Positions 10,458 to 45,470 are shown, counted from the stretch's first letter. The stretch: 64,000 nucleotides of DNA from Acutalibacteraceae bacterium (GCA_963618495.1 CAVESF010000009.1:179-64178); one strand, 5' to 3'. Numbers and translations: made by a program. Notes: generated by a model not told the origin, from the sequence alone.

Positions 10458-11936
10458 ATGAAAAAACTGAAAACGCTCGCCCTTGACCTCGGCGCATCAA
10501 ACGGCAGAGGAATAATCGGCGGCTTTGACGGCAACAAAATCACGCTCGAGGAGGTTCACCGTTTCCCCAATGAACCCGTGATGACAAACGGTCAGTTCAC
10601 ATGGGATATTCTCCGCATTTTCCATGAAGTAAAATGCGCTCTGCGCAAGTGCGCACTCAGCGAGAATAAGGACATCGCCTCCATTGGTATCGACACATGG
10701 GGCGTCGACTTCGGTCTGCTCGACAAAAACGGTCATCTGCTCGGCAATCCCGTGCATTACCGCGACTCGCGCAACGACGGCATGGTTGAATATGCCCTGC
10801 GCACAATGCCGCGCGAAAAGCTCTACGACATCACGGGAATACAGTTTATCGATTTCAATACGCTTTTCCAGCTTCTCGCCGTGCAGAAAAACGATCCCGA
10901 AATCCTCGCCGCGGCAAAGGATATGCTTTTCATCCCGGATCTTCTCGCATATTTCCTCACAGGCAATAAGCAGACGGAATATACCATCGCCTCCACAGGT
11001 CAGCTTCTTGACGCAAGAACAGGCAAATGGAGCGAAGAGATAATAAAGACATTCGGGCTTCCCCGCGGCATTTTCGGAGATATCGTCGCTCCCGGCACGG
11101 TGTGCGGCACACTCCTGCCTCAGGTAAAGGAAGAAGTCGGCGCACTCTCGGCAAAGGTTATTTCCGTTGCCGCTCACGACACGGGCAGTGCCGTCGTTTC
11201 CGTACCCGCCGCTACGGATAAGTTCATCTTCATCAGTTCCGGCACATGGTCGATAATGGGAACGGAAACAAAATCGCCCGTTGTCACCGAGGCTTCGCAG
11301 AAGCATAATTTCACAAACGAGGGCGGTTACGGAAATACGATACGCTTCTCAAAAAACATCACGGGACTTTGGCTCGAGCAGGAATCGAGACGCCAGTGGG
11401 AGCGCGAGGGCGAAAAATTCACATATCCCCAGCTCACGGCTCTCGCACGCGTGGCGGCGCCACTGCGCAGCTTCATAGATCCCGATGACGCGCGTTTCTC
11501 CACACCCGGCAACCTGCCGAAGAGAATAGCACAGTACTGCGCCGAGACAAATCAGCCCATCCCAGAAACAAAGGGCGAAGTTGTTCGTTGCATACTCGAG
11601 AGCATTGCCATGAAATACCGTCACACCGTTGACGCTATAGACGAAATGTGCGGCGAAAGAATGCCCGCCATCAATATCGTCGGCGGCGGCACGCAGGAAA
11701 AGCTTCTTTCACAGTACGCGGCAAACGCCTGCGGCAGAGATGTTTACGCAGGTCCCGTCGAGGCAACGGCACTCGGCAATATCGCGGCTCAGCTTATCGC
11801 GCTCGGCGAGATAAAAGATCTCTCTGAAGCGCGCAAAGTCATCGCAAATTCATTTGAAATAGAGCATTTCGTTCCGCAGGATACAGCGGCTTGGGATGCG
11901 GCTTACGAAAAATTCGTCACTCTTATAAAAGAATAA
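10458..11936 (+). CDS. rhaB: Rhamnulokinase
   Basis: FGGY-family kinase, 492 aa, with LDLGASNGR and VHYRDSRN motifs; adjacent to rhaA. Confidence 0.85.
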   Translation: MKKLKTLALDLGASNGRGIIGGFDGNKITLEEVHRFPNEPVMTNGQFTWDILRIFHEVKCALRKCALSENKDIASIGIDTWGVDFGLLDKNGHLLGNPVHYRDSRNDGMVEYALRTMPREKLYDITGIQFIDFNTLFQLLAVQKNDPEILAAAKDMLFIPDLLAYFLTGNKQTEYTIASTGQLLDARTGKWSEEIIKTFGLPRGIFGDIVAPGTVCGTLLPQVKEEVGALSAKVISVAAHDTGSAVVSVPAATDKFIFISSGTWSIMGTETKSPVVTEASQKHNFTNEGGYGNTIRFSKNITGLWLEQESRRQWEREGEKFTYPQLTALARVAAPLRSFIDPDDARFSTPGNLPKRIAQYCAETNQPIPETKGEVVRCILESIAMKYRHTVDAIDEMCGERMPAINIVGGGTQEKLLSQYAANACGRDVYAGPVEATALGNIAAQLIALGEIKDLSEARKVIANSFEIEHFVPQDTAAWDAAYEKFVTLIKE

Positions 11937-11966
11937 AAAATCAACGATAAAGGAGATTTTAAAAAT

Positions 11967-13220
11967 ATGAACGCAGTTTTTGAAAACGCAAAAAAAGTAT
12001 ACGGCGAGCTCGGCGTGGATGTCGAAGCCGCTATGAAAAGGCTCGAGAGCGTGCCTGTTTCTCTGCACTGCTGGCAGGGCGACGATGTCACGGGCTTCGA
12101 CCATGACGGACCGCTCACGGGCGGCATTCAGACCACAGGCAACTATCCCGGCAAGGCACGCACTCCCGATGAGCTGCTCGCCGATATGGAAAAGGCTATG
12201 TCTCTCTGTCCCGGTAAGAAGAAGCTGAATGTTCATGCCTGCTATGCCGTCTTTGAAAACGGAGAATTTGCAGACAGAGACAAACTCGAGCCGAAACACT
12301 TCAAAAAATGGGCGGAATTTGCAAAAGCGCACGGCATGGGCATAGATTTCAATCCCACATTCTTCTCTCATCCCATGGCAAAGAACGGACTCACGCTCAC
12401 CAGTCCCGATGAAGAGGTTCGCCGCTTCTGGATAGAACATGGCAAAGCCTGCATCCGCATTTCTCAGTATTTTGCCGAGGAAACAGGCATACCCTGCGTT
12501 ATGAATATCTGGATAGGCGACGGCTTCAAGGATGTTCCCGCCGACAGAATGGGTCCGCGTGAGCGCTACAAGGATTCCATAGAGCAGATTCTCTCCGAGC
12601 CTTTTGACAGAAGCAAGGTAAAACCCTGCGTGGAATCAAAGGTATTCGGCATCGGTGTAGAAGCTTATACGGCAGGCTCCGCCGAGTTTACGCTCATGTT
12701 TGCCGCAACTCATGAGGGTTGTCTGCCGCTCATGGACAACGGTCACTATCATCCCACAGAGGTCGTTTCCGATAAGATTCCCGCGCTCCTCTGCTATTTC
12801 CCAGAGATAGCTCTGCATATCACGCGCGGCATCCGCTGGGATTCCGACCATGTACTTGTTTTCGATGACGAAACAAAGGAAATGGCAAAGGAAATCGTGC
12901 GTTGCAATGCGCTCGATCGCGTATATATGGCACTCGATTATTTTGACGCAAGCATAAACAGAATCGCCGCATGGGCAGTCGGTTTCCGCAGCTGGCAGAA
13001 AGCCCTGCTCAATGCTCTGCTCCTGCCGAATGAAAAACTGAAAGCGCTTCAGGACAGCGGCAATTATACCGAGCTTCTCGTTATGCAGGAAGCTGTAAAG
13101 ACGCTTCCCTTTGAGGCTGTATGGAATGAATATTGCGCTCGCTACGGTCTTGACGGCGGCTGCGGCTGGTTTGACGAAGTAAAGAAATACGAAAAGGCAG
13201 TTCTCTCCAAGAGAGTATAA
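11967..13220 (+). CDS. rhaA: L-rhamnose isomerase
   Basis: 417 aa with LHCWQGDDV and MDNGHYHPTE motifs typical of RhaA. Confidence 0.9.
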   Translation: MNAVFENAKKVYGELGVDVEAAMKRLESVPVSLHCWQGDDVTGFDHDGPLTGGIQTTGNYPGKARTPDELLADMEKAMSLCPGKKKLNVHACYAVFENGEFADRDKLEPKHFKKWAEFAKAHGMGIDFNPTFFSHPMAKNGLTLTSPDEEVRRFWIEHGKACIRISQYFAEETGIPCVMNIWIGDGFKDVPADRMGPRERYKDSIEQILSEPFDRSKVKPCVESKVFGIGVEAYTAGSAEFTLMFAATHEGCLPLMDNGHYHPTEVVSDKIPALLCYFPEIALHITRGIRWDSDHVLVFDDETKEMAKEIVRCNALDRVYMALDYFDASINRIAAWAVGFRSWQKALLNALLLPNEKLKALQDSGNYTELLVMQEAVKTLPFEAVWNEYCARYGLDGGCGWFDEVKKYEKAVLSKRV

Positions 13221-36792: not shown

Positions 36793-38496
36793 TTGAAAAA
36801 AAGAGGCGCGGATCATATTGTATACAGCTTTGACAATCTATATGACGGCGTTAGGAAACAGGCAGAAAGATACGGCGAAAAAGCAAGATACGTTTATAAG
36901 GTAAATAAAGAAGAAAAAACTTTCACTTTCAATGACATGAAGCGTCATGTCGACTATATAGCCGCCGCTCTTGAAAAGCTCGGTCTTGCGGGTAAATTTG
37001 CGGGCGTCACAGGCGATACTCATCCCGACTATATAGCCTCATATATTGCCGTGGCAAGCTGCGGCGGCGTTATCGTTCCGCTTGATAAAGACATCCTGAA
37101 CGAGCAGTTTGTCGGATTCTGCGATATGTGCGATATAGAGATAATTTTCTATACTCACTCGCTCCATTCCAAAATGCTTGCCGTAAAGGATATGCTCCCG
37201 AAAGCAAAATATTTCGTAGCATTCGACTGCACGGAAGAGGAACTTCCCGAGCGCTTCATGCGTTTTGAGGATTTCTATGAAACAGGCAGGGCCGCATATG
37301 AAGAGGAAAATATCCGTCCTGCGGAAAATTACGAGCCGGATATGGACAAAATGTGTGCCATACTTTTCACCTCCGGCACTACGGGAACAAGCAAGGGCGT
37401 TATGCTCAGCCAGCGCAACCTCGTGACAAGCGCGCTTGATTCCTGCCGCGTAATGGCGACAAACGATGAAGATTTCTTCGTTTCCGTTCTTCCCATTCAT
37501 CATGCGTATGAGTTTACCTGCGAGCAGCTTGCACTGCCGAACTGCGGCGCATCCACCTACATAAACGATTCCATCAAAAATACCATGCGCAACTTTGCGA
37601 AAGTAAAGCCGCGTTCGCTCGTGCTTGTTCCGCTCTATATAGAGACGATTCACAAGCGCATCTGGGCAGAGATAGAAAAGAAAGGCAAGACCAAGCAGGT
37701 CAAAGCCGCGATGAAGATAAGCAATGCGCTCCGCCACGTCGGCATAGACATCCGCCGCAAGCTTTTTGCCGAGATTCTGAATGCTCTCGGCGGCGAGGTG
37801 AACTACATTGTCTGCGGCGGCGCTCCGCTCCGTCCCGAACTTATAGATGAATTTGATGCTTTCGGCATAATGATTTGCGAGGGCTACGGCATAACGGAAT
37901 GCTCCCCGCTTGTCGCCGCAAATCCGATGCACAAGCGCAAGCATCATTCCGCGGGCGTCACGGTAGAGCATATGGAAGCGCGTATAGCCAAGGCTGACCT
38001 CAATGATGAGACGGGCGAGATAGAAGTCAAGGGTCCTGCGGTGATGCTTGGCTACTACAAGAATCCCGAGGCTACAGCAGCTGTATTTACCGATGACGGC
38101 TGGTTCAGAACAGGAGATATCGGTTATATAGACGATGAAAATTATATTTTCATCACAGGCAGAAAGAAAAATATCATTCTTCTCTCAAACGGCAAGAATG
38201 TATTCCCCGAGGAACTTGAAGAATATCTCGGCGAATGCGAGCTTGTTGCGGAAAATGTCGTAATCGGCAGAAAGAATGAAGAAACAGGCGAGGTTGTTAT
38301 CACAGCGCTCGTATATCCCGATGCCGAAAAGATAAAAGGCATGAGTGCCGATGAAATTTATGCCAAGATAAAGGAAGAAATAAACGAAATAAACAAGAAA
38401 CTTCCCGCATTCAAGCATATCAGCGGTCTTGAAATAAGAGACACGGAATTTGAAAAAACCACATCAAGAAAAATCATGCGTTATAAGCTGAAGTAA
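36793..38496 (+). CDS. AMP-dependent synthetase/ligase (FadD-like adenylate-forming enzyme)
   Basis: 567 aa with FTSGTTGTSKGV, GYGITE and TGDIGYIDDENYIFITGRKKNIILLSNGKNVFPEELE motifs. TTG start per the ORF track. Confidence 0.85.
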   Translation: MKKRGADHIVYSFDNLYDGVRKQAERYGEKARYVYKVNKEEKTFTFNDMKRHVDYIAAALEKLGLAGKFAGVTGDTHPDYIASYIAVASCGGVIVPLDKDILNEQFVGFCDMCDIEIIFYTHSLHSKMLAVKDMLPKAKYFVAFDCTEEELPERFMRFEDFYETGRAAYEEENIRPAENYEPDMDKMCAILFTSGTTGTSKGVMLSQRNLVTSALDSCRVMATNDEDFFVSVLPIHHAYEFTCEQLALPNCGASTYINDSIKNTMRNFAKVKPRSLVLVPLYIETIHKRIWAEIEKKGKTKQVKAAMKISNALRHVGIDIRRKLFAEILNALGGEVNYIVCGGAPLRPELIDEFDAFGIMICEGYGITECSPLVAANPMHKRKHHSAGVTVEHMEARIAKADLNDETGEIEVKGPAVMLGYYKNPEATAAVFTDDGWFRTGDIGYIDDENYIFITGRKKNIILLSNGKNVFPEELEEYLGECELVAENVVIGRKNEETGEVVITALVYPDAEKIKGMSADEIYAKIKEEINEINKKLPAFKHISGLEIRDTEFEKTTSRKIMRYKLK

Positions 38497-38565
38497 TCCT
38501 GCTTATATTATATCAAAGGCTATTTTAAAAGATACAAGTGCTTTATTTGAAAAAGGAGACATATT

Positions 38566-38790
38566 ATGTTTGAAGAAATCAAGACACTGCTCGTAGATGA
38601 ACTCAGCATACCGGCAGAAGAAATCAAGCCGGAATCCGAGCTTATCGGCGATCTCGGCATCAACTCTCTCGAGCTTGCTGACCTCGTCATGCTCTGCGAA
38701 GACAAGTTTGATGTTGAAATAGACGAAGAGGAGCTTCGCAAGTTTATTACGGTAGGCGATGTTGCCGATTATTTTGCAAATCTGAAATAA
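38566..38790 (+). CDS. Acyl/peptidyl carrier protein (PP-binding)
   Basis: 74 aa, acidic. DLGINSLELADLV contains the phosphopantetheine-attachment serine context. AAGGAG RBS. Confidence 0.85.
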   Translation: MFEEIKTLLVDELSIPAEEIKPESELIGDLGINSLELADLVMLCEDKFDVEIDEEELRKFITVGDVADYFANLK

Positions 38791-38898
38791 ACGAGATGCT
38801 AAAAAAGTGCAGACCGAAAAAGTGAAAGGGTGTGTAACTTTTTTGGTAAAAGAGGTTTGTTAAAGCTAAAACTGTTCAGTAATATCGATTTTAAGGAA

Positions 38899-38934
38899 GG
38901 CAGGAAATCCGAGAGAGGTTTTCCTGCCTTTTAT
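38899..38934 (+). terminator. Intrinsic terminator inside repeat copy 1
   Basis: GGCAGGAAA / TTTCCTGCC 9 bp stem followed by TTTTATC. Confidence 0.75.
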
Positions 38935-39143
38935 CATATTCACTTTTTCTCTCGCCGAAATCCTTTTCTGCCGTACAGATGTACGGCGACGAAGCGGATA
39001 TTCAACGATTCTGCGCATTTTTATCTATCTCGTTACACGAGATGCTAAAAAAGTGCAGACCGAAAAAGTGAAAGGTGTGTAACTTTTTTGGTAAAAGAGG
39101 TTTGTTAAAGCTAAAACTGTTCAGTAATATCGATTTTAAGGAA

Positions 39144-39179
39144 GGCAGGAAATCCGAGAGAGGTTTTCCTGCCTTTTAT
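39144..39179 (+). terminator. Identical intrinsic terminator inside repeat copy 2; a mutated version lies in copy 3 at 39389-39424
   Basis: Same hairpin as copy 1. Copy 3 carries C-to-A in the 3' arm. Confidence 0.7.
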
Positions 39180-39544
39180 CATATTCACTTTTTCTCTCGC
39201 CGAAATCCTTTTCTGCCGTACAGATGTACGGCGACGAAGCGGATATTCAACGATTCTGCGCATTTTTATCTATCTCGTTACACGAGATGCTAAAAAAGTG
39301 CAGACCGAAAAAGTGAAAGGTGTGTAACTTTTTTGGTAAAAGAGGTTTGTTAAAGCTAAAACTGTTCAGTAATATCGATTTTAAGGAAGGCAGGAAATCC
39401 GAGAGGGGTTTTCCTGCATTTTATCATATTCACTTTTTCTCTCGTCGAAATCCTTTTCTGCCGTACATTCGCTGTTCCTTTTTCTTGCCGCATCTCATCA
39501 AGCCAAGAGTGCTTTTTTCTTTTCCACAAATATTCAAAAAACCG

Positions 39545-39573
39545 TTGACAAACGCACATTCTTTTGATATAAT
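39545..39573 (+). promoter_or_regulatory. Consensus sigma-A promoter for tRNA-Thr
   Basis: TTGACA, 17 nt spacer, TATAAT; the -10 ends 12 nt before the tRNA 5' end. Confidence 0.8.
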
Positions 39574-39585
39574 AATAAAGCATTC

Positions 39586-39661
39586 GCTGATATGGCTCAG
39601 CAGGTAGAGCACATCCTTGGTAAGGATGAGGTCACCGGTTCGAATCCGGTTATCAGCTCCA
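39586..39661 (+). tRNA. tRNA-Thr (anticodon GGT), CCA encoded
   Basis: Hand-folded cloverleaf: acceptor GCTGATA/TATCAGC, D stem GCTC/GAGC, anticodon stem CATCC/GGATG with loop TTGGTAA, T stem ACCGG/CCGGT with loop TTCGAAT. Confidence 0.9.
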
Positions 39662-39668
39662 GCAAAAA

Positions 39669-39695
39669 ACACCTACGAAAGCAGGTGTTTTTTTG
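39669..39695 (+). terminator. Intrinsic terminator after tRNA-Thr
   Basis: ACACCTAC GAAA GCAGGTGT hairpin followed by a T-run. Confidence 0.75.
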
Positions 39696-39702
39696 TTGCC
39701 TT

Positions 39703-41079
39703 TTATTTCAGATAGTCTAAGGGATTTACGCGCGTATATTTGCCGGTTTTGCTGTCATATACGCGTATCTCAAAATGCAGATGTGTGCCCGCATACGGAT
39801 TTGAAGTTGTGGGCGTGGGGCTGACCCTGCCCGTGTTTCCCGATTCTCCTATCACCTCTCCCGCCTGAACATAATCACCGACAGAAACGAATTTTTTACT
39901 CATGTGCGCATAATATGTGCGCATTCCGTTTTCATGCTCTATCACAACAAATGTGCCGTATGTCCAGAGCATACTTTTGTCCGTGATGGGATTGAAAGCG
40001 CCGTTGTTGTATGCCATCACAACTCTGCCGCTCATCGAGGCGACAACGGCTTCTCCATACCATACGCCGATATCAAGTCCGCCATGACCTCCGCTTCCGT
40101 AATTTTGCGTGATGCTGTAATTTCTGCCTATATATTTGCCGCTTGCTTCTCCTGCGACAAGATACGGCAGGCGGAATTTCTCGGGTGTCGGCTTCGGTGT
40201 AGATTCAGGCTCGGGTGTCGGCTCCGGTGTAGGTTCGGGCTCGGGTGTTGGCTCTGGTTCCGGCTCCGGAGCGACATATGTGCCGACGGCGATAACTTCG
40301 TTTACAGGCTCTTCGCGATCCTGCAAAATGAGAGTTTCGCCTGTCTTTTCGCCGCGGTAATATGATATCTCATATGTTTCCTTGAGAATGCCGTTTTTAC
40401 CTGCGGTGACAAGCGTTTCCTCGCCGAGAGGCAGACAGTCGTCGGAAATCCGTTCCGTTCCATAAGGGATATCGCTTGTCCGCACCTCAACTTCCGATGT
40501 ATGCGAAACCTTTGTCCCCATGAGGAGTATTTCGTTTTGCGGATATGCTTGTATGCGCTCGTCTATGTAGTTGCCTATCGTACGTCCCGCACGATAAAGC
40601 AGTGTCGTGGTATAAACCTTTTTTCCGACTATGCCCTCGCGGATAACCTGCGTATCGTCATCATAATGCTCATCGGAATACCGTATTTCCGTTTCATAGG
40701 GGATATCTTCTGTTCTGGTGAAAACATATGATGTCGGCGGTGCTTCGGCTACTGTGGTTGCGGTAGCCGGAGTGGTCGCGGCGGATGTTGTTGTGGCGGA
40801 TGCTGTTGTAGTCGGAGCGGCTACCGTGGCTGTTTCGGTGACTGTCGTTTCGGACGGCATGGCAGTGCTTGTTACAGTCGTTTGTGCGGTTTTTTCTGTC
40901 GTCGCAAGTAAAGACGGTATTGTCGTTTCCGTCGAGGGCGGCGCGGCAGATGGCAGAGAGGAGACTTTGCCGTCGGGCGTCTTATCAGAGGAGCAGACAC
41001 AAATAAGTATCAGCGCGCAAAGCACGGCAAGAATGAAAAGCACGGCGGAAAGCCGCCTTTTGGATAGAGATGATTTCAT
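39703..41079 (-). CDS. Secreted/anchored M23 metallopeptidase with G5 domains and a Pro/Thr/Glu-rich linker
   Basis: C-terminal GGHGGLDI...HLHFEIRV M23 motifs, two G5-like segments (VIREGIVGKKVYT...), a PEPEPEPTPEPEPTPEP linker and an N-terminal TM anchor. The ATG at 41079 is preferred over the track start at 41127. Confidence 0.85.
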   Translation of the reverse strand: MKSSLSKRRLSAVLFILAVLCALILICVCSSDKTPDGKVSSLPSAAPPSTETTIPSLLATTEKTAQTTVTSTAMPSETTVTETATVAAPTTTASATTTSAATTPATATTVAEAPPTSYVFTRTEDIPYETEIRYSDEHYDDDTQVIREGIVGKKVYTTTLLYRAGRTIGNYIDERIQAYPQNEILLMGTKVSHTSEVEVRTSDIPYGTERISDDCLPLGEETLVTAGKNGILKETYEISYYRGEKTGETLILQDREEPVNEVIAVGTYVAPEPEPEPTPEPEPTPEPTPEPESTPKPTPEKFRLPYLVAGEASGKYIGRNYSITQNYGSGGHGGLDIGVWYGEAVVASMSGRVVMAYNNGAFNPITDKSMLWTYGTFVVIEHENGMRTYYAHMSKKFVSVGDYVQAGEVIGESGNTGRVSPTPTTSNPYAGTHLHFEIRVYDSKTGKYTRVNPLDYLK

Positions 41080-44910: not shown

Positions 44911-45470
44911 CCGTCAGCGCACATATCACATTCACGCCCGCCATGCATTTTCAGCGGGCGTGCAGACAATGCGTGCACGAATCTGCTCGGCTATCTCGTG
45001 TGTTATGTTCGCACGCGTGGTATGGCTGAAGCTGCGGAGAATGGCAAAACCGCCGATTTTTGCTTTGTCTGTTTGTCGCACGCACTCGCCACGCATGGCT
45101 TGCGTGACTAACTCGTGCACGCGGGAAGAGTTTGCAAAGAGAGGGGAAAGCTCTCTTTGATGACTTTTGGTACTTTTCGTCACGGAAAAGTACGAGAGAA
45201 GAAAAGTTACTTTATGTTTCTGCGCGGGAGACCACTGGTCTTCCCTGCCATGCAAAATCCAAGTATAGTCAACAGCAAAAATAAAAGACTGAATCCCTCT
45301 CCGCTTTTTCTTTTGACATCGCTGCCGCAAAAGAAAAAGCTATCAAAAAGAAAACGCCGAAATCAGAATTTTGCGCTCTGCGGAGCGCGACAAAGGCTCC
45401 GCGCCTTTGATGACGCCGCCTTTTTCAAAAGGCGTGCGAAAACTTTAATTGCGGGCGTGCGAAAGCAAAA
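44911..45470 (-). repeat. Intergenic repeat locus R4 (Y, X, H and T modules)
   Basis: 44911-45215 matches the reverse complement of 51196-51506. 45290-45465 matches the H+T units of R2, R3 and R7. Confidence 0.85.

Follow-up and report, generated by a model that had tools for sequence, protein, structure and literature searches.

A tandem array behind a carrier-protein gene of an Acutalibacteraceae bacterium is probably composed of a MITE-like, terminator-carrying repeat element

SPRITE, a non-coding interspersed repeat of S. pneumoniae, consists of a long stem followed by a U-rich tract (2011, PMC3049150). It is enriched near the 3′ ends of coding sequences and was proposed to have been co-opted as a terminator, and neither target-site duplication nor empty sites could be established for it (PMC3049150). 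REP sequences located less than 15 nt from a stop codon stall ribosomes and lower translation, as described in the passage of PMC12306157 that cites Liang et al. 2015. Here we analyzed a window of 64,000 nucleotides (the whole stretch of DNA under study) from an Acutalibacteraceae bacterium (GCA_963618495.1, CAVESF010000009.1:179-64178), which contains a long repeat between a carrier-protein gene and a tRNA gene. With a probability of roughly 0.75, we consider this repeat to be a short tandem array of a non-coding, structured, non-autonomous, MITE-like element that carries a terminator.

By analogy of architecture only, SPRITE is the closest known kind. Like the family to which the array belongs, it is a small Firmicute repeat with a terminator-like core, lies near gene 3′ ends and shows no target-site duplication. 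However, SPRITE has AAAA/TTTT termini and a single 18-bp duplex only, whereas the present family has inverted ends of ∼30 nt, three further helices, an invariant 29-nt box and arrays of whole units, and is positioned more tightly (0 to 8 nt from the stop codon, which it sometimes supplies). BOX of S. pneumoniae (boxA-boxB(n)-boxC) is likewise modular, with partly complementary ends that close the folded RNA and an internal module that can be repeated in tandem, and it clusters with other repeats. In BOX, however, only boxB multiplies, while the present family repeats the entire unit head to tail, and BOX has insertion-sequence-like TIRs and target-site duplications, neither of which was found here. 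REP, BIME and REPIN sequences are also extragenic palindromes that are often clustered and co-transcribed with the upstream gene, and the inverted-doublet design of the present family resembles REPINs. In contrast, REPs comprise 20 to 40 nt without T-tails, ∼11% (or 260 of 496) of those in E. coli are stop proximal compared to ∼61% in the present family, and the main carrier genomes of the latter have no Y1/RAYT gene. Correia (CREE/NEMIS) and ERIC elements are similar in that they span 100 to 250 bp, have inverted ends, fold in mRNA and alter processing and expression; they differ by TA or other target-site duplications and a frequent location upstream of genes or presence of promoters, and have neither a dedicated terminator nor a stop-codon positional rule. 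What sets the present family apart from all these elements is its four-helix design, the invariant box, the arrays of entire units and how tightly it keeps to the stop codon.

In agreement with an earlier note on this DNA, Tandem Repeats Finder and the ORF list placed a single array (period of 245 bp, 2.8 copies, 99% matches) at 38791-39467; its first base directly follows the TAA of the carrier-protein gene, which ends at 38790. An AMP-binding ligase gene precedes the carrier-protein gene. The locus is organized as follows.

38566..38790, + strand: carrier-protein gene, 74 aa, PP-binding (ORF list; Pfam PF00550, E = 5e-13)
38791..39036, + strand: unit 1, 246 bp, full length (Tandem Repeats Finder; nhmmer profile positions 5-250)
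39037..39281, + strand: unit 2, 245 bp, full length, equal to unit 1 minus one G
39282..39467, + strand: unit 3, with 3 substitutions, cut in the loop of the 3′-module hairpin directly after CCGTACA
39468..39544, + strand: unique spacer from unit 3 to the tRNA promoter, in which homology with sibling genomes restarts
39545..39693, + strand: gene for tRNA-Thr(GGT), equipped with a consensus promoter and a terminator of its own, a neighbor outside the element

The differences between units that had been listed in the note could be read directly from the sequence. The single extra G distinguishes GAAAGGGTG in unit 1 from GAAAGGTG in unit 2, and unit 3 carries an A>G exchange in a loop, a C>A exchange of the last stem base and CGTCG instead of CGCCG, before its homology stops past CCGTACA. 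The stem substitution corresponds to loss of the outermost G-C pair of the terminator. The tRNA-Thr(GGT) itself occupies 39586-39661 and is preceded by a perfect TTGACA-17-TATAAT promoter (12/12 consensus, with TG extension). Elsewhere in the window, a 30-bp tandem repeat (40180-40258; 2.6 copies, 89% matches) within a minus-strand gene with G5 and M23-peptidase domains is probably a repetitive linker.

The source genome, G000, is a MAG of 52 contigs, and a stretch of 325 nt is identical across the unit 1/2 and unit 2/3 junctions. Since this identity could let short-read assembly collapse further identical middle copies, the 2.8 copies are a lower bound. More generally, all genomes compared are short-read MAGs in which repeats often end contigs, so that copy numbers are to be read as lower bounds, and in other strains all other assemblies break inside the array behind the carrier-protein gene. 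The fragmented assembly, the frequent position of family members at contig ends and the identical stretch across the junctions would all be compatible with an array that was mis-joined from short-read repeats and is absent from the cell. However, the three units bear distinguishing variants in a consistent order, and independent assemblies from other species and metagenomes show head-to-tail arrays of the same kind at other loci, including heterogeneous ones that a collapse cannot generate. We therefore regard an assembly artefact as very unlikely.

Each full unit consists, from 5′ to 3′, of a 29-nt 5′ box, a variable hairpin (H1), an intrinsic terminator and a 3′ module.

38798..38826, + strand: 5′ box of unit 1, GCTAAAAAAGTGCAGACCGAAAAAGTGAA, the most conserved part of the family (invariant alignment columns)
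39044-39072 and 39289-39317, + strand: 5′ boxes of units 2 and 3, same sequence as in unit 1
38837..38859, + strand: hairpin H1 of unit 1, AACTTTTTT-GGTA-AAAAGAGGTT (whole-unit fold)
38899..38937, + strand: intrinsic terminator of unit 1, GGCAGGAAA…TTTCCTGCC followed by TTTTATCAT (fold, RNAalifold)
39144-39182 and 39389-39427, + strand: terminator copies of unit 2 and, weakened, of unit 3
38939..39036, + strand: 3′ module of unit 1, an inverted 5′ box (TTCACTTTTTC … TCTGCGCATTTTTATC) split by hairpin H3
38952-39008, + strand: hairpin H3 of unit 1, ∼57 nt, with the tip GCCGTAC-AGAT-GTACGGC

Alignments of copies revealed that the 5′ box is near-invariant throughout the family (GCTRAAAAAGYGCAGACCGAAAAAGTGAA) and preceded by a short variable outer arm, and that a conserved linker connects H1 with the terminator hairpin. 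The sequence of H1 differs among copies while its pairing is kept (79% of the helix paired, with 5 pairs changed on both sides). In line with the earlier claim that every unit contains an intrinsic terminator, this element was supported at the level of structure by folds, RNAalifold, which recovered it as the consensus structure, and covariation. Its stem, previously given as 9 bp, comprises 13+2 bp in the fold and reaches −23.1 kcal/mol in units 1 and 2 (z = −4.9) and −16.6 kcal/mol in unit 3. As expected of a Rho-independent terminator, the GC-rich hairpin runs directly into a T-run on the transcribed strand and lies behind a gene of the same orientation; this T-run is present only in the forward orientation of the element. 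In a pair-count test, 97.7% of terminator cells were paired, with double changes in 4 of 11 pairs. For H1 and the terminator together, 87.8% were paired, compared to 44 to 51% when the alignment was slid, and covariation exceeded that of every slid control and of all 500 shuffles.

The GCCGTAC-AGAT-GTACGGC hairpin noted earlier is indeed present, but forms only the tip of the much longer H3. Among 84 distinct copies, H3 was 91.7% paired (32 to 56% when slid), and 6 of its 10 pairs covary. The 3′ module ends with ATCTCGT, which pairs with ACGAGAT at the start of the unit, and the junction between the 3′ end of one unit and the 5′ end of the next is a palindrome. The left outer arm was more complementary to the right arm of its own unit than to those of other units (4.10 versus 3.60 ± 0.16), a value reached in 7 of 2000 permutations. 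For the complete unit, the predicted fold is a single closed structure with multiple branches (−85.6 kcal/mol, z = −6.1). Two alternative pairings are predicted for 38797-38848: a transcript that stops at the terminator would pair its A-rich 5′ box with the U-run of H1, whereas in the fold of the complete unit H1 is formed and the box is paired to the 3′ module. Judged from these models, the alternative pairing might possibly act as a structural switch.

The units do not appear to code for proteins. The 72-aa plus-strand ORFs had been suspected to be spurious, and this was corroborated: the frame is open only in copies of the window locus, is closed by a stop after 1 to 16 codons in other family members, and has no Pfam match. 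On the minus strand (38941-39018), GGGGA-N9-ATG is conserved through its overlap with the 3′ box, likewise in most family members, and this ATG opens an Arg-rich ORF of 25 to 80 aa, whose first ∼27 codons are kept in the close subfamily. We rejected it as a gene given that frame and length are not kept and no Pfam match was found; it is probably a by-product of the hairpin. A mini-ORF starting from a GTG in the 5′ box behind the GGAGG-like outer arm was likewise dismissed (GCG or GCA in many copies). No promoter was found within the units, and a type I toxin-antitoxin system or a small-RNA gene with its own promoter was rejected, as both a promoter and a conserved hydrophobic peptide are lacking. 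In an Rfam scan of 37500-40500, the tRNA alone reached the gathering score; the sole match on the units, to an archaeal/eukaryotic snoRNA model (38752-38823, across the junction with the stop codon), was at chance level with 17.9 bits versus a gathering score of 50.

The earlier note had stated that its reading would be refuted if the repeat belonged to an annotated gene or element in related genomes, and membership in an element is in substance what these genomes showed. The unit is a member of a dispersed family of ∼215 to 250 bp, of which a profile search detected ∼16 units at 12 loci in G000; searching this genome with one unit revealed further copies of 74 to 86% identity. Among them are another array of three copies (C13:8665-9413), single full copies on C4 and, between dnaK and dnaJ, on C1, and cut-down copies in which the 5′ part and the terminator are retained (on C31, C17, C2 and C12, and twice on C8). 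The family is many-copy in the congeners G002 and G003, more diverged in G004 and represented by dozens of copies in sibling species. The 29-nt box was also found in Candidatus Apopatosoma intestinale UBA11495, uncultured Ruminococcus sp. ERR1190865-bin.22 and UMGS824, as well as on at least 120 human-gut metagenome contigs. A scan of 301 genomes of the taxonomic family with the 21-nt core of the box, allowing one mismatch, yielded hits in 13 genomes and 8 of 97 genera (0 for the reversed-pattern control). The distribution was patchy: G234 contained 52 boxes, three congeners had none, and others had 7, 8 or 3. No family match was obtained among viral contigs, phage records and plasmid records, and on these collections a phage or plasmid vector was discarded.

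Cut-down copies often have modules of another, unrelated family of intergenic repeats (e.g., TAAAGTTTTCGCCCGCC) directly next to them, for instance at G000:C31:60-250, G000:C12:50570-50700, locus L021 and 45430-45470 of the window. This second family also occurs at 44911-45470 of the window and upstream of tRNA-Thr in G002 and G003, and gene ends were generally seen to gather different repeat families.

The family also follows a rule in its position relative to genes. In G000, the box starts 0 to 15 nt past a co-oriented stop codon at 9 of 11 loci. The upstream genes include those for the carrier protein (ACP), DnaK, ribosomal protein L17, an AspRS-like protein and several lipoproteins; the copy behind GroEL has lost its box, and one gene carries its own terminator ahead of the element. 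The same positional rule was seen in sibling genomes. Among the 83 distinct gene contexts counted for first copies in all fetched sequence, 51 (∼61%) have no more than 18 nt between the box and a co-oriented stop codon. Some of the contexts are orthologues with slightly different tails, and the number of independent contexts is accordingly somewhat smaller. From the intergenic geometry of G000, ∼7% would be expected (p = 4e-37), and a conservative null restricted to the first 200 nt past the stop codon still gave p = 2e-29. In 7 of the 51 cases, the stop codon is a TRA inside the box, so that the last one to three codons are encoded by the element, and in several of the more distant cases a variant solo box lies upstream and itself touches the stop codon. 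All first copies were co-oriented with the upstream gene. To our knowledge, no transposition chemistry accounts for such a tight stop-codon spacing. A minimal form was observed at locus L215 (G004:C225, 1276-1350), where a stop codon is followed by a 5′ box-like sequence and a short ordinary terminator (CCACCCGC…GCGGGTGG TTTTT), convergent to a Y1 transposase gene.

Comparison of filled and empty sites showed that elements take the place of native terminators. The dnaK-dnaJ spacer is empty in G001, G002 and G004, where it comprises ∼71 nt with a native hairpin (GGGCGGGC…GTCCGCCC). In G000 and G003, a forward element replaces this hairpin, which is thus substituted rather than split, and the 18 nt between stop codon and hairpin are also missing, with the right flank being common to all compared genomes. 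Since G002 is as near to G000 as G003 is (95 to 96% flank identity), the dnaK fillings are separate events at one hairpin. In G005 (L060), a relative of ∼150 nt is present in reverse orientation at the site of the native hairpin. It has the same ends without H1 or the terminator module, and the family may have a terminator-less core form able to land in either orientation. (A run of masked bases in the dnaK frame at G000:C1, ∼30.3 to 30.4 kb, which is translated as X, makes this gene look split.) Empty carrier-protein, SBP, 350-aa and 812-aa gene sites have an ordinary short terminator 10 to 45 nt past the stop codon, and at filled sites of G000 the hairpin of the element is the first, and usually sole, terminator. 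No target-site duplication was detected at 52 distinct end pairs or in the filled/empty comparison at dnaK. That the outer inverted arms are halves of a native terminator stem was considered and rejected (loose fit at dnaK, no fit at SBP).

These comparisons also bear on the original interpretation of the array as a one-off, recent amplification of the gene's own 3′ UTR and terminator, possibly stacked as insulators for the tRNA-Thr promoter. The near-identity of units 1 and 2, a terminator in each unit and a strong-promoter tRNA gene downstream of the array would fit such a scenario. However, the unit occurs at 11 other loci of G000 and dozens of times elsewhere behind unrelated genes, and the ACP orthologues of G001 and G005 are followed by an ordinary terminator without any unit sequence. 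Neither is the tRNA adjacency conserved in siblings: the right edge of the array is a lineage-specific rearrangement junction absent from sibling genomes, the array behind the carrier-protein gene of G002 stops at another point and adjoins a convergent gene, and unrelated repeats lie upstream of the tRNA-Thr promoter in G002 and G003. Hence, an insulator function gained no support, and we give almost no credence to this scenario as a whole. What holds of it is a recent duplication, as units 1 and 2 differ by one indel, but the duplicated segment is a copy of a dispersed family and not the gene's own 3′ UTR.

Arrays are by no means confined to the window. Long tandem repeats in non-coding bacterial DNA had been thought unusual, yet head-to-tail arrays of 2 to 3 units are common in the family, seen in metagenomes as well as at numerous loci of four species, and behind a full unit there is nearly always a further one, or at least its beginning. 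The presumed copy-number variability was observed among strains and species at such loci, with 0.6, 1.65 or 3 units behind the L17 gene, 1 versus 1.65 behind the 812-aa gene and 0.75 versus 1.7 behind the 350-aa gene at orthologous positions. Identities between 32 pairs of adjacent units ranged from 100% down to 51% (random family pairs had a median of 57%), and only about five of these pairs were ≥94% identical (the window locus, two C13 units, L077 and L102). Most arrays are therefore built from differing family members, suggesting that new copies were repeatedly acquired next to a resident one. At the carrier-protein locus we see an ordinary recent duplication within an array of the type usual for the family; judged by unit identity, it is a very recent local event and the youngest extreme among the arrays of the family.

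To assess sequence constraint, divergence was determined per module in 10 independent orthologous pairs. Orthologous elements are 74 to 87% identical, and third codon positions of the adjoining genes 74 to 89%. Differing positions amounted to 6.9% in the 5′ box, 16.4% in the middle of the element, 15.2% in the terminator and tail (with pairing kept) and 31.5% after the terminator, compared to 17.7% at third codon positions of the adjoining gene. Relative to third codon positions, the odds ratio for the box was 0.34 (p = 1.9e-6), and divergence outside the box was close to neutral. This pattern suggests that the box is either constrained in place or preferentially homogenized by gene conversion.

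Constraint on the box raises the question of whether the family is primarily a host-selected RNA module, such as a cis-regulator in the 3′ UTR or a small RNA derived from it, with its repeat character being secondary. The box would then have to adjoin the stop codon, e.g., for ribosome-dependent unfolding, RNase processing or as a protein binding site. Consistent with this, the resident box evolves ∼2.5 times more slowly than synonymous sites while the remainder drifts, its spacing to the stop codon is conserved over subfamilies and genera, cut-down copies retain box and terminator, the minimal form of stop codon, box and ordinary terminator exists, and the box is predicted to pair with the H1 U-run in terminated RNA. 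On the other hand, the inverted terminal design is conserved as well, including the structured module past the terminator; orthologous sites are polymorphic for presence and absence; copy number is high in scattered lineages with a patchy distribution; the units contain no promoter and match no Rfam family; and gene conversion could equally account for the conservation of the box. On balance, we consider a primarily host-selected module unlikely.

A mobile origin of the MITE-like element is instead favored by the polymorphism of filled and empty sites and by copy numbers that are high in scattered lineages. Since many insertions are common to G000, G002 and G003 at orthologous sites, much of the family is old, and the mobility suggested by comparative patterns may no longer be active. 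With MITEs, the family shares a size of <300 bp, a non-coding, multi-copy and dispersed nature and inverted ends, but neither a target-site duplication nor a related autonomous insertion sequence was found. Autonomous insertion sequences with the same ends were absent from G000 and from the ISL3, DDE_1 and Y1 loci, a search made in incomplete MAGs.

Several candidates for a mover or vector were tried and rejected. Y1/RAYT genes (PF01797) were found in none of the carriers G000, G002, G234 and G254 but in the non-carriers G005 and G285; this co-occurrence test spoke against a REPIN/RAYT link, and the only nearby Y1 gene is a convergent neighbor. A parent of the ISL3 or IS4/IS5 type could be dismissed, as ISL3 is absent, DDE_1 loci are without box and no matching ends were found. 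An autonomous element between inverted boxes at L127 was refuted by the content of the interval, which consists of tRNA genes without a transposase. At this locus (10570-12122), the tRNA cluster is enclosed by two convergent genes, both of which have an element at their end, and elements border tRNA genes as in the window. Integron attC sites or gene cassettes were discounted, as the upstream genes are dispersed housekeeping genes (groEL, dnaK, rplQ, ACP) that are not arrayed. One locus has a right arm (ATCTTATTAC) that exactly matches, in reverse complement, the left arm together with the TAA stop codon and the final coding base ahead of it. This exact match points to copying of one arm from the other at the DNA level, from which we infer a process such as palindrome correction by template switching.

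Taken as a whole, the comparisons are consistent with the following course of events. The element would have spread as mobile DNA, driven either by an enzyme or by template switching at hairpins. By sequence and structure, it would now constitute the predicted terminator and 3′ UTR of the upstream gene, with selection holding the 5′ box in place. The one copy resident behind the carrier-protein gene would have been duplicated very recently by unequal recombination or replication slippage, and the truncation of the third copy and its junction with the tRNA-Thr promoter region would stem from a later rearrangement. A more far-reaching proposal, which we put forward tentatively and regard as possible but doubtful, is that of a terminator cassette homing to stop codons. 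Such a mobile cassette would be sent to, or be kept only at, sites just past stop codons, where it would displace the native terminator; its 29-nt box would work at the boundary between translation and 3′ UTR, and it would spread without a conventional transposase, for instance by template switching at terminator hairpins or in the form of a folded single strand.

In practical terms, the family breaks short-read assemblies of its carrier genomes, and its copy-number-variable arrays could serve as strain markers. It also provides a testable case of a conserved stop-proximal RNA/DNA motif, comparable to the stop-proximal REPs of E. coli. The positional rule comprises the ∼61% of contexts within 18 nt of a stop codon, the donated stop codons and the loss of native terminators. 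If this rule reflects the mechanism, the family would represent a mobile element that recognizes the ends of coding regions and swaps gene terminators, which, if true, would be a simple route to rewire 3′ UTRs and operon boundaries in uncultured gut Clostridia.
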